A DNA stretch of 52,149 bases, the filler included, from Dimargaris cristalligena (taxonomy: Eukaryota), in assembly GCA_003614675.1 (NCBI GenBank). It is 3 parts of 3 records of this genome, joined end to end, with 100 filler letters (N's around TTAATTAATTAA, not from the genome) between each part and the next. Parts side by side here need not be neighbours in the genome. Positions count along the whole stretch, not along the records: positions 1 to 17,352 come from ML002808.1; 2 more parts are not named here. One strand, 5' to 3'. The translations under genes and the position numbers were made by a program. Positions 1-52,149 of the stretch are shown one piece after another (positions within the stretch are counted from its first letter, which is position 1; every line of letters starts with the position of its first letter). The notes under the pieces were generated by a model. It saw only the letters and a list, made by a program, of their open reading frames with translations. It did not search any database and had not been told where the DNA came from.

Positions 1-299
1 TTTTTCTGCCTTGGTGGTGACCTTGTCCTGTGGCCCCCCTCCTTACTGACAAAAACAACAACCCCTGTCCAGCTAAGTGGGTTGGTTGTCATAAGGGCCT
101 GGTTTCTTTCCAGGGTCTGTTCTTTATTCTACCTCCTGTCCTTTCCCTCTATATCTGTAGCTTTTGAGGGTTTTTGACCAAATTATCCATTATTATGTTC
201 CCTATGGATGGCAAATTATGACTAAAAGGTTGCCTACCTTAGGTTCACTTTAAATAAAACTTAATTTCACCTAAGCTAAACTCCCTATTCCATCAGAAT

Positions 300-1010
300 T
301 TTTGTAAAATAAATAATCAGTAGCTATTTATTACATTATGGACCTCACTGTTTAGCCAATTATCTGGGTTTTAAATAATGTATTCTACTTTTGAAAGCTA
401 AAGGATAATAACATCACTTAAATAAGCTTTAATCAAACTTCTTAGTTTTTGAACTCCTTTAAAGGAATATAATCTCTTACTTAGATAAATAGCTTATATT
501 TTAGTCCATTATTTATAATTAAATCTGGAATACGACTTTGTGTGATAAACCCATTCCTGGTTCCATCACTAAACAAATGAGATCTACATATGGGTAGAAC
601 AATCAGTCCAGCTATATTAGGTTTTAAAAGATAGCTACTTGGAAACATATACTGGATATATATTTTTAGCTAATAATATTTGTGTCATCTAACATTTATT
701 TTGTAAAATAGGCCTGTTGAACCTCTCCCATCTTAATAATAACTGTTTGTAACACTGGCACTCCTTAGTGATGTAGTTTAGTATTTTGTCATTATTGTAT
801 TTCTATAAATCACAATAAGATTAGTTACAACATACATTTACCTTTAGGGACTGCAGTCCAAAAAAAGGCATCCATCATTTTTCATTAACCCATATTATGA
901 GCTCTATTGGCTTGCCTCAGCTAGGCCTGTATGTTAGACCAAATAGGCAATATTTTCTGGAATAGTGTACCTTAAAACAATCAACAGTCAATTTACTATT
1001 TAATCAATGC
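300..1010 (-). mobile_element. Highly degraded Ty3/Gypsy-type integrase relic
   Basis: Minus-strand remnants in integrase order: YGLM (894-883), LIVIYRNTIM (819-790; cf. ILVVVDRxTKM), IPDLIINNG (531-505; cf. P..IISDNG), KTQIIG*TVR (372-343; cf. HPQTxGQTER). Many stops, AT-rich, only one CpG found in 1-1030. Boundaries approximate. Confidence 0.6.
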
Positions 1011-1510
1011 CATATTTTTTGGTGTCTTTTATGGCCGGCGCATTTGCAGTGGGGGGTTTTTTTTTTTCAATTTATACCTCGGGTACCAGCCATCACTTAT
1101 GACATACCTAAAAGAAACCAACCCTTATATTTTATTTTTAATGCCACCAGGAATTATATACTTAAAAAAATACATTGTTATCCAGTACCTATGGGCTTTC
1201 AAAGCTAGATCTGGACCTGCCAGTTTCTACAGTTATTGTTTTTATCATAGAAATATTAATGCTTTGGGATTAACCAAACTGAAAAAAAAGGGCCGGGTAT
1301 AGATTCACTTTAATGAACCATCGATAATCAAATAAGTATTTGATGGGATACACTTGTAATAGATTGAAAAACGTATCAGTTGTTTGCAGAATATTTATAA
1401 TCTAACTGGAAATAAAATCGGAATACATTGAATACAGCCATACGATATGAGTAGATGGTCAGAAATACTAAATGAGAAGCGTGTGAATTGAATTGGTATT
1501 TCTAGGAAAT

Positions 1511-2443
1511 TTAACTAAAGAAGGAAAAGCGTCTCGAACGCTTTTTTGTTTGGATATTACTGTAGCCAGTACTCCTAGAAGGCTGCATGGGTACGCTTTC
1601 CATGCTGGGATGAATATGTTTGCCCAAGGGATTAACAATTATCTTCCCACGGTGGAGACCGTCATTCATCCGGGCATTGTGCTGGGCCTGCTGCATAGTG
1701 TTTGCGCCCATGTTGGTTTGAATTCCGTTAGCCTGCTGCACAGCGTTCGCGCCAATGTTGGATTGAATGCCGTTGGTCTGCTGAATAGTATTTGCGCTCA
1801 TGTTGGTTTGAATGCCGTTGGCCTGATGGGGAATCGCGCCTAAGGGGTTAGTGGTCGCCTGCCCTGGGCGGAGGCCATAATTCATCTGGGCCATGTAGTT
1901 GGCCTGCTGCATAGCGCTTGGGATCATATGGGGTGGTACAGCATTGCCCTGAAAATAGTACGGGGCTTGTTGCTGAGTGATACCGCCTCCCATGTTAGGT
2001 AAACCGCCATTCATTAACTGAGCCTGTTGGCCTGGGTGGATATTCCATCCTCCGGCATTAAACATCCTAGCATACTGGGCCTGCGGATCGTTCCACCCAC
2101 TTGCATAAGGCATTCCCGCGTTGAATTGCTGGTTGGGATAGCTTAACCTGGGGTTATACTGTTGTTGGGATAACCCGTTGTTGTATCCGGGGTGGCCTGG
2201 ATTGGTATAGTACCCTTGCTGATACGGTGTCCTATAGTATTCCTGTGGACGGCGGTGTCTATTTGCCAAGTGTTGAAATACGTGTTCAACAACCCCGGGG
2301 TCATTGGGATTGAACATGCGTCGGACCAGAGTGGGGACATGGGAATCCTCGGAAGCGGTGGTGGTCGGTTGGTCGGCGTGGGCGACTACCCCGAAGGCGG
2401 CCACGGTCAGCACAACCATTTTGTGAAGCGAGAAAGTTGGCAT
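1511..2443 (-). CDS. Secreted Q/N/G/Y-rich low-complexity protein, 310 aa
   Basis: ATG ORF with signal-peptide-like N-terminus (MPTFSLHKMVVLTVAAFGVVAHA), LVRR dibasic site, three 15-aa repeats, upstream TATAAAA. Confidence 0.8.
   Translation of the reverse strand: MPTFSLHKMVVLTVAAFGVVAHADQPTTTASEDSHVPTLVRRMFNPNDPGVVEHVFQHLANRHRRPQEYYRTPYQQGYYTNPGHPGYNNGLSQQQYNPRLSYPNQQFNAGMPYASGWNDPQAQYARMFNAGGWNIHPGQQAQLMNGGLPNMGGGITQQQAPYYFQGNAVPPHMIPSAMQQANYMAQMNYGLRPGQATTNPLGAIPHQANGIQTNMSANTIQQTNGIQSNIGANAVQQANGIQTNMGANTMQQAQHNARMNDGLHRGKIIVNPLGKHIHPSMESVPMQPSRSTGYSNIQTKKRSRRFSFFS
1689..1823 (-). repeat. Three 45-bp tandem coding repeats
   Basis: Encode QANGIQTNMSANTIQ / QTNGIQSNIGANAVQ / QANGIQTNMGANTMQ. 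Confidence 0.9.
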
Positions 2444-2592
2444 TGCAGTATCAACGTAACGGCGGTCAGTGTAGCTGAATGGGATGGTGAGCGGACCAGT
2501 GAAAAATGGGTAGGTGAAACGAAAGGTCTAAAAACGATGAGGCTAAAATAGCGGACTAGTGATCAGCTTTTAGGTGGGTGGGGGTATTTCCT

Positions 2593-2599
2593 TTTTATA
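2593..2599 (-). promoter_or_regulatory. TATA box candidate (TATAAAA) for the 1511-2443 gene
   Basis: TATAAAA on the minus strand about 150 bp upstream of the ATG. Confidence 0.5.
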
Positions 2600-5500
2600 T
2601 ACAAAAAGGTAGGGCAGACTTAAGATTGGGCACTCGTTATTCATCAACCGACTTTTTTTCATACGCTATTGACTTACGTCTCTGCCGAGTATCCCAGTGA
2701 TGGCTACATTGATTTGACCCTGTATCACCGCCAGATGTGGAAAATATCCACAATCCGTTCACGTACGTTTCCCCTCTTTGAGCGAACCGACGCGGCCCTG
2801 TACAACCTGGGATGGAAGCGGGAGTGGAGTCCCTCGATAGGCTATATTGAAAAGCCCTAGGTAGAAAGCGTCACTTCCCTAATCGATCGTCGATAACGGT
2901 AAGGGCAAATGCATTTAATGCCTTGGAAATACACGGTTTCTAGCGGTTCAATCGGATGGTCGGTCCCTGCATTTACTATGGTAAAATTTGTGGAGAAATC
3001 GAAAATTATAGGGTTGCCTATTTTTTTCTAAAAAACTTAAATGGAGAGAATCAGAAATCTTGTCGATGAATAAATATCACCTTTCATTAAAATGTATTCC
3101 GGGCAAAGTAGTTAAATATTTTGGCAGTTACAAGGCTGAGTGGCTTTCCGCCTTGTAAAAGCGAAAACAATACAGAACATGCACTAGAGCTTTGAATGTA
3201 GTCACTGGTTTAAACTGTGCCATGGTTGGGGAGTAACAATAGCGGCGAGCATATGTTACACCCTCTAACCCTCTGCTACAGGCCTATTAATAGGGGGCCT
3301 TGCACTACAGAACACTGTATAGACTTTAAAATCACCATGGTCAATCACACTTACCCTCCTTTACCACCCCTTCGTCCCATCGGAAGCGGAATTATATTTG
3401 GGTGGTTCCATTCATGTCCCTTCTGCCATTAATGCTGAGCTGTAGCACGACAAACCTTGCCTGGTTCGTTCGCCCACTAGGTCTACAGAGTAGTCGGCCG
3501 GTCCTTGTCATACAGTAGGGCAATGTATACTATTGAACCGAAAACTGGGGCGCATTACACTTGTCAAACAACGGCTGTCCATATTCTACAGGCGCTGAAA
3601 GATGCCTCCATCGTTCCCTTTACATGGACCCTTCCCCCCTAAAACTCGGTCCACACTAAGATGGGTATTTCCTTTGGGGTCCAGAGTGAGATATTCCCCC
3701 ATTGTCCTACACTAATCCGGTTGGGTGGAGGTTATCATGGCATGGTAAACGACTGGAACGTAGGGCCTCACCGAGCCTTGGAGTATTTAGGGGTGGTTTT
3801 AGCGAGCCGCCGATATACCTGCACATGATGAAGGACCAAGTTTTCAAGTAGAAGGCGGGACTACCAAATTAACTATTTCCTGGTTAAGATATCAAGAGTT
3901 ACGTATTCCGCAAGAGGGCTTTTTTCCTACCTGAGCGACTACAAGAATGCTGGTACTATATAGTACCACCAGGCTGTGGTGGCAAGGGTGATACCGAGCC
4001 CTTACTACTCACTAATGAAGAGCCACCACTACCAACGGACACAGTAGGTAGTTGTTTCCCTCCGAACATCCCTCCCCTTAGTGAAAAAAAAAAAGAAAAC
4101 AAACATTGAACTATTGAGAGGGGATTTAAGCCCATTTTTAATATTATTCCATTAGTAACTTTTGGCTCTTAGTGTTTCGCTGTTGTGGTTTTCATGATCA
4201 TTTTCGCATCTCCCGGTACCTGGCCTTCCTGACCTTCCTCCCAAACCGACAGAAGGTACCCGGGTGATGGAATGCCCGGGTATAGGAAAACGCCCCATGC
4301 CGTTGTCCCCTTGACTTTTAACCATCTCAAAAATTATAACATAGGTATTGGGACATTCTGTGTATCAGATGGTCATGAAGCCAAACCCAATGGGAATCAT
4401 GGAATAGGTCCATTCTCGAAATCTAGGCCTGTATCTTGTCTGGGTAAAGATAGTCATATATAGTGAATTGTATTGCCACACTAGATAGTCGCGGAAGACA
4501 TTCTTACGGATCCTGCCAAACCATGCGTAGCTTTTTGAATACGGAGAAGCAAATCAGTCTGTAGATAAGAAATACCCCCGTGGATCATTTTCATACATAC
4601 CTAGCTGATGGAATTGAAAGTAGACAGGGTGGTGGAAGCGGTGGGGCAATTCGATAATGATCATCGGCAAAACCTTCCTCTTATACTATGTGCTGGGGAG
4701 GCTGATCCATTAGTTCTATTCTCACTAGCCAGGCCCCCCAAGAAAGAACGAGGAAATGCTGGCTTACATAAGTGCACATTGGGCTATATATCTGTTTAAA
4801 GAGTATACTAGTAAGGGTATAACAGCGATTCGATAAAATAGATAGTATGAAGCGGCTTATACTTTCCCGTGGTTATAATGGACAGAAATAGGGGGGGGGG
4901 CTTAAATCAAAATAGGGCTACTTATGCCCAAGAGTTCACTATACTTGGGCCATTGGGGGTATCGTTATTGAACTCCAAATGAAAGACATGTCGAAGGGGC
5001 GGCGCGATAGGCAACTGCCGAATACTATACTAGTACATTATCCGACACCTTTATGGTCACAGCCAAGTAGTAGAGACACAATTTCCCCGGTGGACGATAG
5101 ACACCCGTGATTGCCGAGAAGATCAACGAAGCCACCACTGTGGGAATAGTTAAATCAGCCACGGAATATATCATCACCGAAATAAAAGGGAAAATGGGGC
5201 CCAGTTCGAGAACCCAATTAGTTCGTGATCGGCAATAGTTCACTGCTCTACTTCGGGTTCAGAGGTGAGTGAGCCCACTGTTATTCCGCACTGTCTACTC
5301 TGTAAGAGTCCCTTTCATCATAAGTGAACCTTTAAGAGGAATACACGCGGTAGATCCCAGCGCTACTGCCGAGCGTTCACGGGCCAAATAAGGGAATGAA
5401 GCAAGAGGGCAACTGTGGGGAGCTGCAAATAAAGGATAATGTGGCCTTCTGGGGACGATTCCCGTCTACCTACTCCATCATTTTACATGGCCCATACACG

Positions 5501-5738
5501 GAGGTCCCTGCAGACGCATCGCTTTAAAACTGGCCATCTTGCTCACCATTGCGCTCCTCTAGTCCGCTCCGCTCCCTCTTCTTCGTATTCCCCAACATTT
5601 ACAGCTTTTATAGGCGAAGCCCCCGCTACCCTCGCGTATCCCCTGTGGGTAGTTATCATATTTCCATCTACCCTTTCCCCAACTCACTGACCTAGTTCTT
5701 TAATATCACTTAATCTATTGCATCCACGGTTTAAAAAC

Positions 5739-6899
5739 ATGAATTATTATGCACTTTATGTCGCGAACTATACCCTGGCCTCTCTATCGGTACTTTGCAG
5801 TCTAATATCCATTGCCATTATACTTTGGGTATGGTACAAAAAACCCTCCACCAAGGAGTCGCCCTCCTTTTCCTTGGCCATTTGGATTAGTTTCACCGAT
5901 ATTCCCTTACGCATTGTTGACTATTTAACCAACCCCCTCACCTTTGGGCGCGATTTCCCCAACTCGCCCGTTTACGCTCGGTTTCTGTGGTGGCTCAATA
6001 TGTTCAGCATCATGTGGTTTGTTTACTTGAATGTCATGATTGCACTGGACCTCCAGCTCGTTATTTTCCACCGACTACCGCGCCAGGCCCGTATCCGTCG
6101 AATGTACCCTTACATGGCCACTGGTGTAGCGTTCTTCTTCAGTTTCTGGTACCTTATTTTACCCGATGTGCGATTCCTCGCCGATGGTTCCGTAACGACG
6201 TCCGTTCCCCAGTCGCTGGCGGTCTATTTTTCCATGTACTGGCTGACGGCTTGGTTATTAGTGGCCATCCTTTATGTGACGACGGTGGTGGTGGCCATTT
6301 TTATCACCCTGTACCGTTCCCAGGCCCGCTTAAAGGAATTCGCTCTGATCAATGCCTCGCGCTCGCGCAGCCGCAACCTCATCAACAACGCCCGCCTCAT
6401 CGTGGCCTACCCCGTCATTATGTTCTTCCTGTTCGTACCCTATTCGTCAATCAACTTAGTGAACCTCGTGCGGTCGAATGTCCCTCGTACTCTCATGGAT
6501 ATGTGTCTCATTACGTTTTCCCTCCAGGGCATCCTGAACTTCGTCACGCTCTTGTTCCACCCCGTCATGCTGGCGGCTTACAAGGAAAACCTTTTTAACT
6601 TGCCGGCCTTTTTGCGCCCGATTCCGGTTGAGCGCAAACGACGCGGTAAGGGGAAACCCACTGCCTTTTCGGGGCTACCCACATTGGGCGCCTTGCCAAC
6701 ATCGAAAAAGGCGAAGGTCACTCACCTCCACTCTCTTGACATGGGGCCCGGGGTGACTGGCCATTTTAATGTGGTGATGGAGTCGAGCCAAATGAGTGTA
6801 ACCGAATGTGATACCGATTCAATGAATTCCTACTTTGGTACTCCCCCAGCGCAGCATAGCGATTCAGACAGCTTCCATGAAGAGACAACTTACCTTTAG
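5739..6899 (+). CDS. 7TM GPCR-like protein (cAMP-receptor-like/Git3-like)
   Basis: About seven hydrophobic segments, SPSFSLAIWIS after TM1, RLIVAYP before TM6, LQGILNFVTLLFHP in TM7, polar C-tail. First ATG at 5739. Confidence 0.75.
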   Translation: MNYYALYVANYTLASLSVLCSLISIAIILWVWYKKPSTKESPSFSLAIWISFTDIPLRIVDYLTNPLTFGRDFPNSPVYARFLWWLNMFSIMWFVYLNVMIALDLQLVIFHRLPRQARIRRMYPYMATGVAFFFSFWYLILPDVRFLADGSVTTSVPQSLAVYFSMYWLTAWLLVAILYVTTVVVAIFITLYRSQARLKEFALINASRSRSRNLINNARLIVAYPVIMFFLFVPYSSINLVNLVRSNVPRTLMDMCLITFSLQGILNFVTLLFHPVMLAAYKENLFNLPAFLRPIPVERKRRGKGKPTAFSGLPTLGALPTSKKAKVTHLHSLDMGPGVTGHFNVVMESSQMSVTECDTDSMNSYFGTPPAQHSDSDSFHEETTYL

Positions 6900-7302
6900 T
6901 CTCGATCATTCAATCATCCCACCACTCAACCGTGCATTTAGCATTTTCCTTCAGACCTTTAATACCCATATCCATATTCTGCATACAATTGTACAGCCAA
7001 ATAAAAATACCTTTGGACTTTCGTTTAGAAGCCTCGATCATAATCTATGTTTTCGGAAGATGGAACGCAGCTTATTTAATATATTACGTAATGGGATCGT
7101 TGTAAAAAATAATTACCACAGAAAACGGAAGCAGATATAGCCTTATATTGGCTGATGCATTTCATTTTATTGGACCATGATGGTTGCCAATAGTTAAAAT
7201 AAATAATTTCCCAAATCAGGAAACAGGTAGTGCCAGGTAAGTGTGCGCGTATAATACAAGTCAAACTATAGTGCAGTTAGCAATATAGATATTAAAGAGG
7301 AA

Positions 7303-10300
7303 TTAGAAGTCCCAGGCATCCACATCAACCGCATAATCTTGGTCGGTAAAGCCGTAGGCTCGAACGTTAATCAACGGCCGTTGGCCAGGGGAAATAACGG
7401 TGGGTATAGTTGGTTTAGTTTCCGGCAAGTGGGTGCTGCTGTTATTCAGTGGTGCGTCCAGGTATAATGTGCTAGTAGATAGAGGCATGGTTGGTGGGTG
7501 GGTAAAGGACCGGGGGAGATGGGCCGAATCCTCCGTTTTTAGTGGTGTCGGTCCCAGGGGGCTATTGCGCTCATTCTGGTTGAATTCTAAAACCAACTGC
7601 TCATGGATTGTCCTTGGTGAGGGCTCACATTTAATGTCCACTGAAGGGATATGTGTTTCTGTCGCAGGGGCTGCCTGGAGACGATGGCAAACTCGCAAAG
7701 GTTCGGGACTTGAGGGACCTAGTCGAGCTGGAGAAGTCGGAACGGGTGACTCGAGTGCCTCATTCAGGGAACTACAGGACACCGGCATTCCTTTCAAAGA
7801 AAATCCCGGGGAGCCAGTCGCTGACTGCCAGTGTAGTAGGACAGAATGGCCATAAAAGAGGATATTAATTTGTGATTAGTGGTGAATGTTGCAGCTGTCA
7901 AGGCGTTAAGAGCTATAGTCACCCATTAGGCGAGCAACATGATAAATAAAGAAATGTACCGGCAAGTTGTTCTTGAGCATCGGTAATTTGGCTGTGTCTT
8001 ACTAACCTGGTTTGAACCCGCTAGGTCGGGGTTGGATAGGAGACTATGGCAGTTCGCCTTGTTGGCTTGGAGGTTCTGGAGCATCGCTAAACTCACTGAT
8101 ACGACCTGCACTTGGGACTGGGATACCCACGTATCGGTCGATGAAGTGGGCGAGGAGGACAAGGGGGTCTCAGGAGTAGCCAGTTGGTACGACTGATCTT
8201 CGATCCCAAATGTTGGATCTGCTCCGCTCTGGGTCCCCACGCCATGATCGCTTAAGCCACCCCCCCGATTATCATCATAATCATCATCATCATCGTCACC
8301 AAGCCCCCGCAAGCTCCGGTCCTTGGCCAGCTTTTCTACAAGCAGACGATAGGTGGGGTCCGATTCGGTCAAAGGAGAAAAGAGACTCGGCGATCCGGCG
8401 TACTCGGCATCTAAGGGGTCCTCAGTTGACGAGTCCGACTCTGATTGATCTACCATATGTGACGGAGATGATAAGGCAAACTCCCAGGGGGTTTTTCCGT
8501 CGGGGCGTATCCGGGTACCCCTTTGCGGGGTATTAGGTAGAGACCGGGGGGGTGAGGCATTGAGCGGCCGGAAATCAAGTGCGACGGGAGTGGCCGGAGG
8601 TAATGACAACGCCCGTGGCCGCAATGGCTGGCTGGATGTTGGCTGGTTATGCGAAAGCGATTGAGGGGCGTTTTTGGGTTTATGAAAAATTTCACGTACA
8701 AAATCGGGGTTGAGGGAGGAGTATGGGTAGCCCCATGCACTATCTTGGCTATTAGGCTCCGTATGACTGGCCATTATTTGGACAGTGATGTGTCGAATAA
8801 AAGGGGGTGGCTCGTCGGCAATCGCTGGGCCAACGTCTTCCGTCAGGCTAGAAATTGGTGGTCGGTGAAACATAAAAATGGCACCAGTGTATGTAAAATA
8901 GTAGTGTAAATATAAAACCCGAGCAATGGTGGCAGTGTAGGTTGGCCGGGTTGTTACAGTCAGGGTAAAATATATAATACACTTGGCCGTGCTTAGGCAC
9001 CACCATAGAGATAATTCGGCTGTAGGCCACACAATTTGACTACCCTTTCCAAAAAAAACGCACGCTAAGTGAATATGCCATATCTTTTGAACCGTAATAG
9101 GGCCGGGACTTACCTGGTCGAGTATTGGGTTGTGTAGGTAGGAAGCGGCGAAAGCTGACTAATATTAGGGAATATGGAATGTTCGGTACTTAACAGGCGG
9201 TCCATAGTCAAGGGAGGTGACCCGCCCAGTCTAGTTTTTCGCTGGCCGCAAGGTACCTGTTCCAAGTCCGATAAAACTGCACTGTCCATAAAGAGGCGCG
9301 ATTCACTGGGAAAGGGGGTTTCAGAGGGCTCTTCCCTTCGGGGGATTGATCTGGTGCCGCTTGGCCAAAGGGACGAGTTAGTCCTCCCAATCTCTGATAA
9401 TTGATGTACGTAGAAATCGGGTAGAGTGTTAAAAAACTGCTGCATTTCATACCAGGCAGCGCCGGTCTTATCTTGGTCTATTTTTCTAGAGCGTGTGGAC
9501 GGGCTCTTGGGCATTGGCGTTCTATTAGGTAACGGAGCACTCGCGGGAAAAGGTTGTGTCACTGACCACTGAGGCTACAATGCACCCACAATCGGATAGA
9601 CAATAAACCGGATTTGTATCAGTGTTAGTTCAAGTAGGGCGATGGATCAGCCTTTGCCAGACATTTACCCAAAATCAAATCTATGGGCTGTGCTATGTTA
9701 AATAAACCGCATTTATACAGGCATATTAAGGGTTTATCTTACCTCCTGAAACAAGTTTTCCGATGAACTGCCTTTTGCCGGCTGAGAGACGGATTGGGAG
9801 AGTTGTTGGTCAAGCTGTGTATAATAGTCTATGTCTAGCGCGCCTGAGCCCTCCTCCCAGCCTAGCAGTTACACCAATATGAAAGCCGGGTCAGTGTTAA
9901 ATAACAGTAAATCATTTAAACGAGCTCATAAAAGAGCGATCAAGTATGTGTAGCCGCAAAAGCTGAGTTGTGACATATTGTATTACAATAATTAAGATGT
10001 AGTGATGTGTGTTTACCTGGAATTGTATTTAATATGATCTCTGCTTCGTCAGGGATTGCGCATTCGTTGAGTCGGGGAGATCCGAGAGGGGACTAATCAA
10101 TATTTTTTTACCGATTATAAGCAATAGCATATAACGTAGTTTAGTAGGTTTAGAGCCACCAGGGCTTTACCGGCACAAAGGTCATGGAAAAAATGACATG
10201 AATTTCGCCCTATCAATACAATACTAAGTCAAAGTAAGCCAACAAATCCACAACATCAACTTCGACTTACATCTTGTGACATAGAAAGGTCTTTGGAGAT

Positions 10301-11326
10301 GGCTATTCGTGGCGGTACAGCGTGGGGCTGGGGTGAGTCCAAATTGGTCCGTGAATCACCATTTACCTAAATACACAAATTGGTGAGGAACAAGTCATTC
10401 GGAGATCGAGAATAATGGTGATCGTGTATACATCAGATTGAGTACACAGTAGTCGGTTGGTTAATTTCAGGGGCCAGGTCAGGTCATTCTTGTAATTGAT
10501 AGGACCCACTTATCTAGCAGGATACCAGTGGCTGAAAGCGGGTACGTAATAGCATTAAAACATATCTCAATTGGCCCAGTTAGAACTTACCCAGTGTTGG
10601 GTCAAAGGTACGCTGCGAGCGGTCAGATAATTCCAATCATTGGACTCTTGGTCGAAATTCTCCAGGGCCTCTGGGAGAGAGGGTAGGGGGGAAAACAAGT
10701 AGATTTACGATGTGGTATTAGTTAATTAATTCAAGTAAAATAAGGGGCTATTATTATTCGTAAACTCTTAGACTGGCCAAGGCGATTATGAACGAATTTG
10801 GAAAATACGAGGTTGGAAGAGTGTATATATAGAATTTTACTAGAATCTCACCTGTGATACGGCTATCGGTCTCATTAGGCTGAAGGGTAGCGCTAAGTTG
10901 TTTTACCAGCAGCGCGATGGACTGGTCTTCATTAAACAAGGACGGGTTACCGATAGTAATGCAGTCATCTGACCCCATATAATCGAATTGCGTAATTGAT
11001 AAATAACAATACGTGGGTTGTCCCGAGCGCGGGCGGTAGGCAAGCATGGTGTAGGCACGAAGGTTGATAAGTGCCCCTGAAATGGAAGTTAGGGACGCCT
11101 GTTGGCGCTCAAAGGCCTCCGTACAGGCCAGAGAAAAGACGGCTGGAATCCAGTGCTGGGTGTCCGATACCTGGACCGTAATGTCCACGTCGATCTGCGA
11201 GGCCGTTCGGTGGCTCAGGAAGGTTATCAGTTGAACGCGGCGACTTTTAGTTGAAGGAACGCCCAACTGAATGTCCTCTTGGAGGAAATCCCGGCGTAGC
11301 CAGGGTCGCAGAAGGCGCGGAAACAT
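7303..11326 (-). CDS. TPP1/Est3/Tpz1-like shelterin subunit, 8 exons, ~889 aa
   Basis: Exons 11326-10852, 10670-10591, 10366-10271, 10092-10017, 9861-9743, 9574-9114, 8847-8007, 7824-7303; all GT-AG, phases consistent, 2670 nt total. N-terminal LLRPWLRRDFL...VQL...VQVSDTQHWIPAVFS...GALINL...YLSITQFDYMG resembles the TPP1/Est3 OB fold. Confidence 0.75.
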
Positions 11327-13347
11327 GTCGGCGGGGTCTACTTCAAGGGTCAAAATAAATAGGGGAATCGTAGAGGGCGAGTCCCGGGAAGCCGTATTAT
11401 CGGGAATGCCGCAGCTGTGGAAAACATTCGCCGGGGTAACCAGGGGGGGGTTGAATTCGGAATGAGCTACGGAGACGGGGAAGAGAGAAAAGGCTAGGTC
11501 AAAGGGCCACATGGGTGACCAACTTAGTTTTTGACATGAGGTCCATCCGACAGCGTAGCGGAGTGCAACTTTATGGGAAATCTCGAAAATGGTTTTTGAG
11601 TGGGCCATTTCCAAGGCGTAAGCCTAACAGGGTGGAGTGTGAATTGTGGGCCAATCCGGTACAAGCCGGAGTATTAGACCAGGTTTACATGATTGGCGCT
11701 GCATGAAGCCATGGGTTAGATTGTAGAGTATAATTGCTGGTATAGTTTTTGGTAAGTCGGCCTTTAAAGGGTTACAAGGGCTGAATTCGAGGGCACTGTT
11801 GTCAATTGCTGGTATTAAACGTGGGTATAACCCCACGATAATAAATATTATCGAATTGTTCCGAAAACCCGGCGAAAATGGCAATGCCGTGCTTAATAGT
11901 CGAAGGGATTGAGGTCGCCCCATTTTTGGATTCTAGGTACTAGCATTGCCTACGTTCATCAATAGGGCGCGGCAATTCAATCACCAAAAGAATTACCTCC
12001 CTTCGACCATTCCCGCCTCCCTATTCACATCCTCGATACTTTTTATTTGCTATCATGTCTTGATATGCTATATATAGTACTTCTACTAGTAGCGTTTTCC
12101 AGTATATTATTGTTGATTTCATGTTTTTACCCTTAACCTGCCTGGCTAAATGGGCCGAACCCACCCCTATAATTACCCAGCGGTAAATCAGTAAAATCAA
12201 TACCCCTTTTACAAGTTGAATTTTCCCTATACTTGAGACCTGACATTATAATAGACCCGTCGGGATATATTTTCAATAAAATATACTCAAACCAAATCAA
12301 CTTAACCATTGGCGGTAAATGATTTGCATCGCCAATAATTAACCATGCCTCATACGTACATAGCCTGTGGGGCTGTGGGGGCTCGGGAGGGACAAGGGCA
12401 CGGAGGACAGAAGGTTTTCCTGCCACCAGGGGTATTGGGTTATAAGATTTAGACAATAGATATATTCGGAAGACACTAAAACACTAGTAAAGCTCGAAAA
12501 ACATTGATATTCGGATAGAATTTCGATGATTCTAACGACTCTGATCACTCTGGAAAGTCAGCTGAAACTCTGGGAAATACTCTGAAAATACTAGAAAGGA
12601 TACTCGAAGCAGGAACTCGTTTTCCTGGAGACACTCATATAAATTTGGTCTGATTTATTAATGGGTTGGGAATGCTGGCGCTATTTATACAACGCCAGCG
12701 AGTTTAGAGCAAATAGCGAATTAGAGCAAATTAGCAATGGAGACCAGGTGTTGGATATGGCAGATTCGATGACGAATTACCGCAGTGCTAAGACTAATTA
12801 AACGGACGGAACCATCGGGGTTCTAACGTCAATTTGGAAGACGAATAGCCGGGACAGACCAGTAGTGACTAGGGCAGACCCATGTCTAATCCAGTTAGAC
12901 ATGCACGCTGCAAACCGTGACTGAGTTTCCAAGTAAAAATTGAAGTCAAGATGGTAAATACATTTCAATGTCATGTCGGAATCTGCCACATATGTCGAGG
13001 GAAAACATAAAATATATTGTGTGAACAAATACAAGTAGTACTTAAACATCATAGGTTTTGTTAGGTAATGGTTTCTACTATCGTTTAAAATGTTTACCCA
13101 AGCTATTGGAGCCGATCTTGAATTTATAAATTACTATAAATCGGGCATTACCGCCACTACCCCCAATCCAAATATGAATGCTAAATTTATTGGTGAACCC
13201 AGAGTTTTTAGAGTCACAGACTCGAAAACATAATTAAAATGTTAACTAAAAATCATACGACCTCCCAAAAAGGTCAAGACTGGCAGACTATGGTGTAAGG
13301 ACTTTCATATATGTGGAAGCATAGGAGTTTGTTCAACCGAGAAAATT

Positions 13348-14256
13348 TTAGTAGTGGTTGTAGTTACTGCTACTACCGCCATTGCCACCGTTGCCACCAT
13401 TCCCGCCGCTGCCACCGGATCCACTACCGTAGCTATTTCCACCGTCACCACCATTACCCCCGTTACCAGCATTTCCGCCGTAGTTGCCTGATCCGGCGTT
13501 GCCGCCATCCCCACCGTTACCGCCATTACCACCGGATCCACTACCGTAACTGTTTCCACCATTGCCGCCGTCGCCGCCATTCCCAGCGCTTCCGCCGGAG
13601 CTGTACGAGTTACCACGACCGAAGCTGTAGTTGGAATTATCGCGATTGCGATAACGACCATTGTTGTTGAATCCGGAGTAGCGGTAGTCGTCGAAATCGA
13701 CGTAAGGAGTGCGACGGCTTACACTCCCACCGTCGCCGCCGTTGCCACCATTGCCCGCGTCACCTCCACCAAAACTATCACCCCCGTTGCCGCCATTACC
13801 ACCATTACCGGCGCTACCACCCTGCCAGTTCATGAGATTTTCGTAACCGTATCCACGGCCGGGGCGGTAATGATCATCGTCGTAGTTAGTGCTCCAGGGG
13901 CGGCTGTTTTGGTATCCGCGGTTGGATTGGTAGCGATAGTCGTCAAAGTCGACGTAGGGACTACGGCTACTGACACTACCACCATCGCCACCGTTACCGC
14001 CATTTCCTCCATCACCTCCCGATCCGCGGCCATTGCTATCACCGCCATCCCCACCGTTGCCACCATTGCCTCCGTTACCGCCACTTCCACTGGGCAGGCG
14101 GTTGGAGTTGGATCCGTGGTTGTGGTGTTGATTGCCTTGGCGGTGATACTGCTCGGAAACGAAGCGAGGGGTTAGTTCGGGCGTTGCGGCAGCCTGGGTT
14201 TGGGTAGTAGCCAGGATGGTGGCGAGAAGAGCGACGATTCCAACGGTGACCTTCAT
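13348..14256 (-). CDS. Secreted glycine-rich GGX-repeat modular protein, 302 aa
   Basis: Signal peptide MKVTVGIVALLATILATTQTQA; three GG(N/D) repeat blocks; duplicated SVS(S/R)R(S/T)PYVDFDDYRY motif; TA run at 14583-14592 upstream. Confidence 0.85.
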   Translation of the reverse strand: MKVTVGIVALLATILATTQTQAAATPELTPRFVSEQYHRQGNQHHNHGSNSNRLPSGSGGNGGNGGNGGDGGDSNGRGSGGDGGNGGNGGDGGSVSSRSPYVDFDDYRYQSNRGYQNSRPWSTNYDDDHYRPGRGYGYENLMNWQGGSAGNGGNGGNGGDSFGGGDAGNGGNGGDGGSVSRRTPYVDFDDYRYSGFNNNGRYRNRDNSNYSFGRGNSYSSGGSAGNGGDGGNGGNSYGSGSGGNGGNGGDGGNAGSGNYGGNAGNGGNGGDGGNSYGSGSGGSGGNGGNGGNGGSSSNYNHY

Positions 14257-16182
14257 GTTGACAAGTTGATATTGGGATACGGGCGCGATTGATAAAGCGG
14301 AAGAGAAAGGGGAAAAAGTTGAGTGGTATATAGTAGAAGATCAAGCGAAGCGTGGATATAAAATTACTAATATTGTTCGGGGACCGTCAAGGACCTTGTA
14401 AAGCGTAAACTCGGGGGAGTGAGTTAAACTGATGGAATGGAGCTAACGTAGCAATTTTCTCAGAAAAATGCTTAGAGTGAAGTGGGAGAAAGAGAGAGAG
14501 AGAGGGGGGGATGAGAGAGATCATACAAAGATTGCGTGTTGAACAAGTGGTTTACTTTTCAAAAGGACGTTGGTGGGCCAAGTATATATATAGCAAACCT
14601 GGGTTGTAATGACGATACCATGACCAATTAACCTTCTATCGTTATGAAGTAGGCAATCCAATATAGAGAGGCCCAGATCTAAGACCCCACCACATAAAGA
14701 AGCAGCTTTGCAAAAATATTCAACTCCGCCACATTTACTGAGCCCATAGCCCATCAAAAACCGCCGGATTCGACGCTGCGATGCACAAGTTACTTCTGGG
14801 TCTCTCCACTCGGAACGCTAAACAGTTACATTCAGTTGTATGTAAGCCTTTATCCATTTTCGTCAATAATAATAGTAAAAAACTCGATAATCTAAAGAAT
14901 TAGGCACGTACGGGAGTGATTGACTATCACTAGTTAATGCATCCAGCTGCCGATGCCAAGCGGGAGTTGCCCACCGAGAGTGTACCTGAGCTATTTTACA
15001 ATGTATGAGCGGGTTTGCGGAAACTTTTGACCTGCCCTTTATTATTATCGTACTGCTCAAGCATTTCAGCTGCAGCAAAGTGCAAGCCAGGTTTCCGATT
15101 ACCCTGGTTGGTTGTATAGTCGGCCGCCTTCTAGGTAAATAACCTATACTAAGTGTGAGAAGGCCAGTTCCGCATATTCGGTACAGTCCAACTTACAGAT
15201 CAACTGTGACAACCAGATCCACCACCACCAAAATACTACTAAACGGAAATATTCATGCATACGTTGCTCGGGATCCAACTGAAGCCGTTAACAGTCTAGA
15301 GTGGACCAGTCTCTGTGTCTGTCACTAGGATATTTTGAACGAAGTGGAAAAGGTTAGATTTGAAACTACTTATTAAAGAAACGGGGAGGAACAGGGGGGG
15401 TGGTGGAACTTGAAAATCCCTATAACATTGCAACGCCGGATTTGGACTAGCCAGTCCCGCTGTAATAAACCCAAGTGTATCACACAGATTATATATTTTT
15501 AAAGTAGGTTTATATACTCAGTACGCCTTTGGAATTTGGAAGACAAATACAGATAGGTGCTCAATTTATGACCGCAAGAAAACCCCTGTACCGTTAATAA
15601 TTGGGTCATCAATCAACGAAGCCCAGGTGATGGCAACATCTTTCTATCCCATCACCTCCTTTCGTGGTCAGGGGTGTAGTCGGGAGTAGGAGTATTGCCT
15701 TCCAAACCCATGCCCATTTTGGTAAAAACAACGGCAGTCGGATTATTTTTGCTTCCACGTCCGTTTCAAAATAGTAAGAAACTGGGATTCAGATGGGTTC
15801 ATCAAGTCGTATACGGCGGATTATTATTTACCTTCACGTAACAAGAACTGTGTGGGCCTTAGATATACCCGGTATGTTCTCCCAGCCAAACCATGTCCAG
15901 CAAATCCAAATACCAATAGACGAGGCTATGGATTGGGGGATGTATAACTAACAACCGGGGTTCATACACCATTCCACCTGACTAAAAATCCTGATGCTCG
16001 CCAAAATGTCCAAACGAGGCATAGCTACTATAACCTACACTATTAAGACCCGGTGGTTGCTATTTTTAGAGACCGTCGGATAAATCTAATATTAACCAAT
16101 ACAAACGAGAGTTTATTGTTACAATACAGATCTAAACACATTAAAGAAAAATAAAAAAACAGCGGTGATTTCGGCCAGTTAG

Positions 16183-17136
16183 TTAACTGGAAGCACCAAG
16201 TGCTTCATTGGTTAACACAGGTTTGGGAGCATGCATCAGTAGCCACCGCTTGGCCGACACCAGATCAGACCCAGCCGAAATGACCGCTTTGGCGAGCCAC
16301 TCGATGGGATACCCAGTCAGCGATTGGTCAGAAGAGCGAGGCTGGACTTCAGCCGCAAGCGCATTTACCAGGAGAACCTGTCTGGTCGTAGTCTCGTCCA
16401 CACACAGTTGCAGAGGGCCGTCCCGAGCGCATAAGGACTGCTTTCCTCCTTCCCCTGGTCGGTTCCGAGCGGGGGCCAGGGCAGGCCCTCCTCTGTGGAG
16501 CAATTGGACCACCTGTTCCACATTGGGTCGGATTCGAACTGCCGCCGTAGTGGGGTCCATGGGGCCGGAGTTAGTGCCCGTAGCACACATTGGATTTTGG
16601 CACCAGCTGTTGCCGCAGCCATGGGTAAGTTGGCGATGGAGCGCCTCCGCCACCCGCTGGATCAGTTTACGGTGATCGGGGTCGTGGGCGGACGACCAAA
16701 AGGGGCCGAAGCATAGTGCACACAAATCGAGGAGATTGGCACTGGCACCCAGGGCCCGGGGCCGCAGGCAGTTGGGATTGGCGCAGAGCTGGAGTGGCAG
16801 AGGTTGGTTCTGGCGCTGAATATGGTGCCACCGCATGTGGGTGGCCACTTCCTTAAGCTTGACATTTTTCTGGCACTGGGTACACGGGATGGTGCGATTG
16901 CCACAGTAGGACTCGTGCTCATGGAGGCCACTTAGTTTATCGCGCAAGTCTTCGGATGGGGGGCCCTGAGGGGTAAGCGTGTGGCAATAGCGACAGATAA
17001 TCATGCGGAGGGGGCACACCGTACATCTGTGATGGGCCAGTTCCGGGATGGATGTTCCTTCGTAGCCACAGGGACAGGTCTGAAGTTCATGATGGAAAAA
17101 TAGATGCTTGGCTCTCTGAAACGGCGTATCGCCGGA
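16183..17136 (-). CDS. 3' exon of a multi-zinc-finger protein with AZUL (UBE3A N-terminal-type) Zn domain; fungal UFD1-like family; 5' incomplete
   Basis: CRYCH...HESYCGNRTIPCTQC...H, CANPNC, LCALCFGP, QLTHGCGNSWCQNPMC. Frame stays open up to 17136, preceded by an acceptor TAG (17139-17137) and a TACTAAC branch point (17188-17182). The upstream part runs toward the contig end. Confidence 0.7.
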   Translation of the reverse strand, partial: SGDTPFQRAKHLFFHHELQTCPCGYEGTSIPELAHHRCTVCPLRMIICRYCHTLTPQGPPSEDLRDKLSGLHEHESYCGNRTIPCTQCQKNVKLKEVATHMRWHHIQRQNQPLPLQLCANPNCLRPRALGASANLLDLCALCFGPFWSSAHDPDHRKLIQRVAEALHRQLTHGCGNSWCQNPMCATGTNSGPMDPTTAAVRIRPNVEQVVQLLHRGGPALAPARNRPGEGGKQSLCARDGPLQLCVDETTTRQVLLVNALAAEVQPRSSDQSLTGYPIEWLAKAVISAGSDLVSAKRWLLMHAPKPVLTNEALGASS

Positions 17137-17352
17137 CTAGGTATGGACAATTAATGATGGTTTGGCATGACGTAATAATAAGTTAGTATACATGGGTTGG
17201 TTAGATGACGATAGGTACCCGAACATGAATACAGACGGGGGAATGCCTCCAGCAAACCGGTGGTGAGCTTGTGTGAGTACGCAATCAAGACAATATGGGA
17301 GAAGTTCATCCAAGCTGTATAACGAAAAATCCATTAGATTCGGCCAATATTA

Positions 17353-17452
17353 NNNNNNNNNNNNNNNNNNNNNNNNNNNNNNNNNNNNNNNNNNNNTTAA
17401 TTAATTAANNNNNNNNNNNNNNNNNNNNNNNNNNNNNNNNNNNNNNNNNNNN
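17353..17452. other. Artificial contig-joining spacer
   Basis: 44 N + TTAATTAATTAA (stops in all six frames) + 44 N = 100 bp. Confidence 0.95.
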
Positions 17453-34792: not shown

Positions 34793-34892
34793 NNNNNNNN
34801 NNNNNNNNNNNNNNNNNNNNNNNNNNNNNNNNNNNNTTAATTAATTAANNNNNNNNNNNNNNNNNNNNNNNNNNNNNNNNNNNNNNNNNNNN
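34793..34892. other. Artificial contig-joining spacer
   Basis: 44 N + TTAATTAATTAA + 44 N. Confidence 0.95.
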
Positions 34893-51656: not shown

Positions 51657-52149
51657 TTAGCGTCGACGGATTGGCGATGGACTGTAACTACCCTGTAATT
51701 TTCGGTCCACTGAGCCAAATATCGAGTNNNNNNNNNNNNNNNNNNNNNNNNNNNNNNNNNNNNNNNNNNNNNNNNNNNNNNNGATTGGACTGTTAGTAAT
51801 GCTGCTGCCGCTTGTTTGTTGGAATAGGCGGAAGGCGGCCGGGGACAGTGCCCGTTGTCGGGTGATGCTATTGGGAAAGGAGTGGGATTGGCCAGGACGG
51901 ATGGAGGTTGTAAACAATACGGGTGAGTGTTAAGAGCTTCGAGCCGTTTGGTATTGGGTATTTGTTTAAGATATATAATCTAACATCGTTATAAGTATTT
52001 ACTCTACAATTACCAAATGGCATATCTATATAGATATGTTGGTAAAATGGGTGACTTACCGGTCAAGTGAGGAGGGCGTCCCCGGCCCAGGTGAATTGTT
52101 GATCCGGCTGCGGGGCTTCGGTTCCGACTCTTTGGCTCGTTTTGATTGG
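51657..52149 (-). CDS. 3' end of an unidentified S/P/R-rich gene (partial, one intron, spans N gap)
   Basis: Donor GTAAGT at 52059, acceptor TAG near 51869-51871, last exon reads ITRQRALSPAAF...SYSPSPIRRR*. Confidence 0.5.
51728..51782. other. Assembly gap (55 N)
   Basis: Run of N without the stop-codon linker. Confidence 0.95.

Follow-up and report, generated by a model that had tools for sequence, protein, structure and literature searches.

The gene at positions 7303 to 11326 on the minus strand of the window, by which we mean the whole 52,149-nucleotide (nt) stretch of Dimargaris cristalligena DNA analysed here, is very probably the single TPP1/Tpz1 orthologue of this Dimargaritales fungus (Zoopagomycota), built on the usual three-part plan. 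Its best model, which we infer from splice signals and homology, joins eight exons into a predicted protein of 889 amino acids (aa). A TPP1 gene is expected in this lineage and the present one had already been labelled automatically, so the gene itself is no surprise; it has a candidate Pot1-interacting motif, and its conserved C-terminal tail is the lead most worth pursuing. Positions 1-17352 of the window are the gene's own neighbourhood, and the runs of N at 17353-17452, 34793-34892 and 51728-51782 mark joined contigs. The exons and principal features of the gene are as follows.

10852..11326 (minus strand): exon 1, aa 1-159; carries the start ATG and, at about aa 1-145, the complete TPP1/Est3 OB fold
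10591..10670 (minus strand): exon 2, aa 159-185, linker; GT-AG; coding score +0.113 bits/nt; junctions shared by both public models
10271..10366 (minus strand): exon 3, aa 186-217, linker; GT-AG; in both public models; coding score about zero
10017..10092 (minus strand): exon 4, aa 218-243, core of the putative Pot1-interacting motif
9743..9861 (minus strand): exon 5, aa 243-282, end of the putative motif (W244) and the subsequent helix
9114..9574 (minus strand): exon 6, aa 283-436, open frame, GC content 0.51; its first 318 nt are intron in both public models
8007..8847 (minus strand): exon 7, aa 436-716, Ser/Pro-rich, acidic disordered linker; open frame, GC content 0.55-0.56
7303..7824 (minus strand): exon 8, aa 717-889 and stop; included in the 812-aa public model but not in that of 639 aa
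9857..10071 (minus strand): candidate Pot1-interacting motif, aa 225-244, spanning intron 4; profile match to PDB 7cui chain B
9791..9829 (minus strand): helix after the motif, aa 254-266; significant in one of seven homologues (Dispira, 0/1000 shuffles)
7306..7344 (minus strand): C-terminal tail, aa 877-889; consensus D-[YFV]-[AS]-V-D-[VF]-x-x-W-[DE]-[FC]-COOH

Gene structure and the N-terminal OB fold

The initial annotation had proposed that eight exons splice in frame into one protein of about 889 aa, and at the level of sequence our analysis confirmed a single gene of eight exons and seven GT-AG introns, the joined exons giving 2670 nt (889 codons and a TAA) with no internal stop. Exons 1, 6, 7 and 8 are contained in open reading frames (ORFs) of at least 150 aa, and exons 2-5 (76-119 nt) lie in no ORF of at least 60 aa. 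The introns, 155-266 nt in length, have a GC content of 0.35-0.42 against 0.49-0.55 in the exons, and each of the seven is interrupted by one to six stops when read on in the upstream frame. By a simple consensus score, the donor was the single best GT within 60 nt in five introns and tied in the other two, while none of the seven acceptors has another AG in the preceding 60 nt. Sites picked on these signals, with the frame disregarded, thus yield a stop-free chain, for which the naive chance is (1/3)^7, or about 5e-4, with ties ignored. When scored with a coding model that takes codon phase into account, for which 7566 codons of other ORFs in the genome served as the training set, all seven introns came out negative and six of the eight exons positive; exons 4 and 5 were slightly negative, yet they are the best-conserved exons after exon 1. 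A branch-point-like CTRAY sequence occurs in only four of the seven introns.

Pfam, a PDB profile and a fold search agree that the N-terminus carries the OB fold of TPP1, Tpz1 and Est3, as had been proposed. Exon 1 matches the Pfam TPP1 family (PF10341) above its cut-off (E 1.4e-7; 31.9 bits, cut-off 26.5), and this is the single match to the family in the genome. A homologue search over 1.84 billion cluster representatives returned ten matches, comprising one model of the gene itself, seven others that were kept and two that were dropped as repeat artefacts (P0003, a bacterial Calx-beta protein, and P0008, an insect repeat protein). PF10341 was the best family in all eight fungal-type relatives including P0011, four of them above the cut-off and four below. 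With a seven-sequence profile, nine PDB sequences were recovered (E 0.002-0.023), eight of which are named TPP1/ACD or Est3; the ninth, 8soj_B, bears the label STN1 but is probably a fusion construct, its matching positions being those of the TPP1 chain of 8sok. Foldseek, queried with an AlphaFold2 model (predicted local distance difference test, pLDDT, 67), placed the human TPP1 OB fold at ranks 1-6 with template modelling (TM) scores of 0.55-0.63, and Est3 at ranks 8 and 10.

Other searches added little. A profile search among proteins of 52-1278 aa gave 13 proteins, consisting of the window's own model and Pneumocystis-type sequences; the same search among proteins of 1279-3650 aa found no relative, nor did two metagenome scans, and a single-sequence PDB search with the Cadophora protein gave no match. 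The ESM Atlas, used for leads only, related aa 95-370 of P0011 at 0.89-0.90 to an unnamed, mostly Zoopagomycota cluster and to two PF10341 clusters. The relatives compared below are the following.

Dispira simplex: P0002, P0012 (730 aa)
Tieghemiomyces parasiticus: P0005 (615 aa)
Dimargaris xerosporica: P0004 (451 aa, partial)
Pneumocystis species: 333-379 aa
Cadophora gregata: P0009 (1591 aa)

All share the OB fold, most have the Pot1-interacting motif and the two complete Dimargaritales species have the tail; they differ in their linkers, which vary in length and cannot be aligned.

The protein is predicted to be full-length rather than OB-only like Est3, in agreement with the initial annotation: a donor site closes exon 1, and exons 4, 5, 6 and 8 all contribute conserved motifs. 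Budding-yeast Est3 (2m9v, 9swn, 6q44) shares the OB fold and an alignable S-D...F-S-x-x-C...F-E...T-S block, whereas its PDB chains of 170-181 aa consist of the OB fold only and the Dimargaris protein would have about 730 more residues and a Pot1-binding motif. Est3 E114 is replaced by I82. In the Dimargaris loop that aligns with the human TEL-patch loop, a single acidic residue (E73) is kept. S81 aligns with Est3 S113, a predicted RPA2 contact (bioRxiv 10.64898/2026.04.26.720725). Human TPP1/ACD (2i46, 5i2x, 5i2y) resembles the Dimargaris protein in its succession of OB fold, POT1-binding region, disordered Ser/Pro-rich linker and conserved C-terminal motif (PMC8653790), and differs in that the Dimargaris C-terminal motif is a 13-residue acidic-aromatic tail and not a helical TIN2-binding motif.

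The candidate Pot1-interacting motif and presumptive partner genes

A second region pointing to the same family lies in exons 4 and 5, which had been put forward as a candidate Pot1-binding segment, and the candidate gained support. An 11-sequence profile retrieved four PDB sequences: two of Est3, one of low complexity, and the Tpz1 peptide from 7cui (E 0.012), which matches exactly at the aa 225-244 block. In Tpz1, changing L193, C198, I200 or P201 to arginine abolishes Pot1 binding, and E197 forms a salt bridge (PMC9333443); the Dimargaris residues E227, C228, I230 and P231 are identical to E197, C198, I200 and P201, with three of the four essential residues (the C198, I200 and P201 equivalents) thus kept. 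Scored by its best ungapped match against 1000 shuffles in seven homologues, this block is the best conserved outside the OB fold: it beats 1000/1000 shuffles in Dispira, D. xerosporica and one Pneumocystis and 997/1000 in another Pneumocystis, and is not significant in Cadophora (75/1000 shuffles as good) or in a Pneumocystis model with an insertion (148/1000). The conservation scan covered 144 windows and flagged 16, seven of which are the motif block across Dimargaris, Dispira and Pneumocystis; five others (aa 545, 620, 650, 720 and 785) were set aside as single, out-of-order or low-complexity matches. Taken from sequence comparison, these results support aa 225-244 as the likely counterpart of the Tpz1 Pot1-interacting motif. 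The helix at aa 254-266, which is of low confidence in the AlphaFold2 model, may possibly extend the Pot1 contact.

The likeness to S. pombe Tpz1 (7cui, PMC9333443) concerns both the layout, an N-terminal OB fold followed, some 200-240 residues into the protein, by an E-C-x-I-P...L motif, and the partner, a Pot1 with a plain OB3. The differences are that the Dimargaris motif continues with G-W and a further helix, that the L193 and Q204 equivalents are changed, that a pattern search found no SWSSS-like motif and no Ccq1- or Poz1-binding helix is recognisable, and that the linker is much longer.

The presumptive partners are encoded in the same genome (assembly G000). The Pot1 gene (L003:1417-3827, plus strand, contig C454) carries OB1 in one exon, and its last exon holds the end of OB2 and the whole zinc-motif OB3, which has two CxxC pairs and lacks an insert of HJRL size; the best PDB match of this exon is 7cui chain A (E 1.7e-4). 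Zoopagomycota Pot1 has three OB folds (PMC9119445). The Dimargaris OB3 (residues 172-366 of L003:2727-3824) measures about 190 aa and leaves no room for the HJRL insert, a difference from the human system, and an exon with a complete OB3 free of such an insert is convenient for structure work. TERT (L005:2186-6172, minus strand, contig C696) has TEN, RNA-binding and reverse transcriptase domains and long low-complexity inserts. It occupies one open frame of 1328 codons; TPP1 and Pot1 of the same genome have several introns.

A number of observations weigh against identifying the gene as TPP1/Tpz1. Single-sequence PDB searches with exon 1 (no match) and with the 812-aa model (one low-complexity match) found no telomere protein, and a Pfam search of the genome for TRF (TRFH), TINF2_N, Myb_Rap1 and Stn1 gave no match, a search that intron-split or divergent genes would escape. 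Profile alignments indicate that known telomerase-contact residues are mostly not kept; TEL-patch residues are reported as non-conserved even across vertebrates (PMC8653790), and telomerase contacts are described as rewired between yeasts and human (bioRxiv 10.64898/2026.04.26.720725). The motif match is modest, with seven of the 11 profile rows being of Pneumocystis type. In the fold search RPA70N follows close behind human TPP1 (rank 7, E 1.1e-4) and its entries are frequent from there down, while identity to human TPP1 is 16-19%, all of which would suit an OB fold that is the RPA70N-like docking domain of a non-telomeric adaptor and owes its TPP1 label to coincidence at fold level. We find this scarcely credible, since no RPA70 chain is among the matches of the sequence profiles, which do include TPP1, Est3 and the Tpz1 motif, and since two separate regions indicate the same family in the right order and at the right spacing.

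A different objection comes from the motif itself. Tpz1 L193, essential in two-hybrid tests, corresponds to P223 and Q204 to A234; in Tieghemiomyces the motif is degenerate (684/1000 shuffles as good), and one relative has been named automatically 'Telomere replication protein EST3'. These points could indicate an Est3-like telomerase subunit with an OB fold, in which the long tail has lost Pot1 binding and the motif is a decaying remnant. Such a history is improbable, because the motif is the best-conserved non-OB block and retains C, I and P, and because the genome encodes a Pot1 with an intact OB3.

For a TPP1/Tpz1 orthologue, the following mode of action can be proposed. By analogy with human TPP1, Tpz1 and Est3, the observed OB fold would dock on TERT and recruit or activate telomerase; the motif at aa 225-244 would occupy the OB3 groove of Pot1 and so tie the protein to the single-stranded overhang; the disordered Ser/Pro-rich linker of about 630 aa would give reach and regulatory sites; and the tail would most likely bind either a telomerase regulator or whichever shelterin subunit comes next in the direction of the double-stranded DNA.

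The C-terminal tail, the linker and the bridge question

The last 13 residues are identical at 7/13 positions to those of Dispira P0002 and at 6/13 to those of Tieghemiomyces P0005 (0/1000 shuffles in each case), and the 400-600 residues before them are unalignable between Dimargaris, Dispira and Tieghemiomyces. The tail was not found in the Pneumocystis models, the D. xerosporica model is partial, and the range of the tail outside the Dimargaritales is poorly sampled. Cadophora P0009 ends in a loosely similar W-x-aromatic terminus, which only one of 475 internal 15-mers matched in score, in a post hoc comparison. Searched against the PDB, the last 41 residues gave two weak, unrelated matches and no telomere protein. 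In the AlphaFold2 model the tail is short and not a long amphipathic helix.

Human TPP1 ends in a helical TIN2-binding motif, and invertebrate TPP1s mostly lack a recognisable C-terminal motif (PMC8653790); the C-terminal region of Tpz1 contains Ccq1- and Poz1-binding motifs (PMC9333443). The Dimargaris tail sits where the TIN2/Poz1-binding helices occur in known TPP1s, and it is this position that makes a comparable role most likely. The initial annotation had called the product a shelterin bridge protein: the Pot1 side of such a bridge has sequence support, but neither a partner nor a helical motif of TIN2/Poz1 type turned up for the double-strand side. It is conceivable, and we offer it tentatively with the odds against it, that the Dimargaritales tail is a distinct acidic-aromatic binding motif that replaces the helical TIN2/Poz1-binding motif and links Pot1-TPP1 to an undescribed bridge. 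The tail might then possibly be shared, as a W-x-aromatic terminus, with the long TPP1s of filamentous ascomycetes, and candidates for the bridge would be a divergent TIN2/Poz1-like protein, the protein of this genome with a Rap1 C-terminal-like domain, or a telomerase regulator of RPA/Est1 type. If true, this would represent a third way of wiring shelterin and provide a 13-residue bait for finding the partner; the tail offers a handle on how, in fungi without a recognisable TIN2 or Poz1, the single-strand half of shelterin is connected to the double-strand half.

The Rap1-like protein just mentioned is a 643-aa ORF (L006:166-2094, plus strand, contig C139) whose Rap1 C-terminal-like domain matches at E 0.0075, below the cut-off, and which gave no BRCT or Myb match. 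The domain scored 0.80 or less in the ESM Atlas, and the ORF is possibly a reduced Rap1.

Near the start of contig C2089 (L008:51-512) there are about 460 nt of irregular telomere-like repeats, which on the G-rich strand comprise 50 units: 17 TTAGAGGG, 9 TTAGTTAGGG, 8 TTAGGG, 5 TTAGTGAGGG and 11 other variants. If this array is the organism's telomere, the repeat is heterogeneous and not plain TTAGGG; it stands on one short contig that could be chimeric or foreign. Three other short matches lie in non-array DNA, one of them just upstream of an apparent gene. No fungal telomere study was among the best 15 of 48 literature matches for the 8-mer repeat.

Between the end of the motif and the tail lies a linker of 633 aa, rich in Ser (12.7%) and Pro (10.7%), with 16 S/T-Q and 26 S/T-P sites. 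AlphaFold2, run on the 812-aa P0011, was confident in the OB fold only (pLDDT below 50 for 656 of 812 residues) and predicted a pair of short helices over the motif and, in the linker, two more that stand alone. A pattern search found neither a TRFH-binding F/Y/H-x-L-x-P motif nor a SWSSS-like one. The protein had been described as unusually long, which comparison does not bear out: relatives measure 615, 730 and 1591 aa, within a range of 333-1591 aa for the fungal set, and animal TPP1 linkers are Ser/Pro-rich, disordered and 50-700 aa long (PMC8653790). At 889 aa it lies at the long end without being an outlier, and the extra length is all linker, with no second folded domain seen. In Cadophora gregata P0009/P0013 there appears by eye to be a second ordered region near aa 1165-1290, with a weak DUF7041 match (E 0.068).

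One further block was noted within the linker.

9407..9454 (minus strand): motif B, aa 323-338; significant in one of seven homologues (0/1000 shuffles) and resembling the second half of the Pot1-interacting motif

A stretch of Dispira P0002 resembling motif B was reached by BLAST alignment and is not significant alone. Equating motif B with a block of the Cadophora protein failed, 901/1000 shuffles being as good.

Public gene models and neighbouring genes

The gene is not hidden, contrary to what had been claimed, as two models of it are public under the name Dimargaris cristalligena: P0001 (639 aa) and P0011 (812 aa), the first of which UniRef already labels 'Shelterin complex subunit TPP1/Est3 domain-containing protein'. 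Both have introns 1, 2, 4 and 6 (four of our seven) in identical form, and P0011 also has intron 7. Both start 94 codons upstream, insert a 13-aa mini-exon in intron 3 and skip 318 nt at the start of exon 6 as well as about 250 nt in the middle of exon 7; exon 8 is not in P0001. The upstream start defines one more feature.

11327..11608 (minus strand): in-frame stretch upstream of exon 1, the N-terminal extension of the public models; no homologue has it

The splicing proposed here is favoured by the start codon of the relatives, the conserved blocks in exon 6 and the conserved tail in exon 8. The start ATG of the 889-aa model is matched in all three other Dimargaritales (Dispira, Tieghemiomyces and D. 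xerosporica); within the omitted part of exon 6, blocks aa 323-338 and 380-394 match Tieghemiomyces P0005 in the same order; and the exon 8 tail is kept at the exact C-terminus of both complete Dimargaritales relatives. At these three places the 889-aa model thus appears better supported than either public model, and the public models appear to be mis-spliced. The stretch at 11327..11608, which has a pLDDT of 22-36 and no secondary structure in the AlphaFold2 prediction on the 812-aa model, is probably 5' untranslated rather than coding.

It could still be that the gene and its role are as described while the mRNA is nearer to the public models, or that both forms arise by alternative splicing, the protein then not being 889 aa. 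The 639- and 812-aa models agree on the upstream ATG, the mini-exon and the shorter exons 6 and 7. The upstream stretch from the in-frame ATG at 11608 and the 39-nt in-frame mini-exon (10209-10171) contain no stop and have weakly coding scores (+6.6 and +0.8 bits), and intron 3 of the 889-aa model has a weak polypyrimidine tract (5/15) and no CTRAY. The middle part of exon 7, which scores +8.2 bits, has no homology support, its support being compositional. Set against these points are, besides the relatives' start, the exon 6 blocks and the tail, the omitted parts themselves, which are stop-free with a GC content of 0.51 and 0.56 against 0.35-0.42 in introns. On balance we consider a public-like mRNA unlikely, at roughly the level of a serious minority option. 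The better exon model restores motifs that were cut from the public ones, a gain of modest, practical value.

In the literature, Tpp1 is treated as a standard basidiomycete shelterin subunit (PMC13234504). No study on Zoopagomycota TPP1 or on this tail was found, in a search that left figure alignments, bioRxiv supplements and most subscription journals outside its reach, and nothing on Dimargaris TPP1 was found in PMC10499019, PMC7952879, PMC12449055, PMC11670948 and PMC8305976.

Three neighbouring genes were noted in the window.

5691-6899 (plus strand): convergent, intronless gene for a multi-pass membrane protein; no Pfam match; by eye its product looks like a fungal G-protein-coupled receptor
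13348-14340 (minus strand): probably secreted protein rich in Gly and Asn; it contains GGNGG-type repeats and, twice, a Tyr/Asp-rich block, and Pfam gave no match
16183-17136 (minus strand): ORF encoding a TRAFD1/XAF1 zinc finger and an AZUL domain

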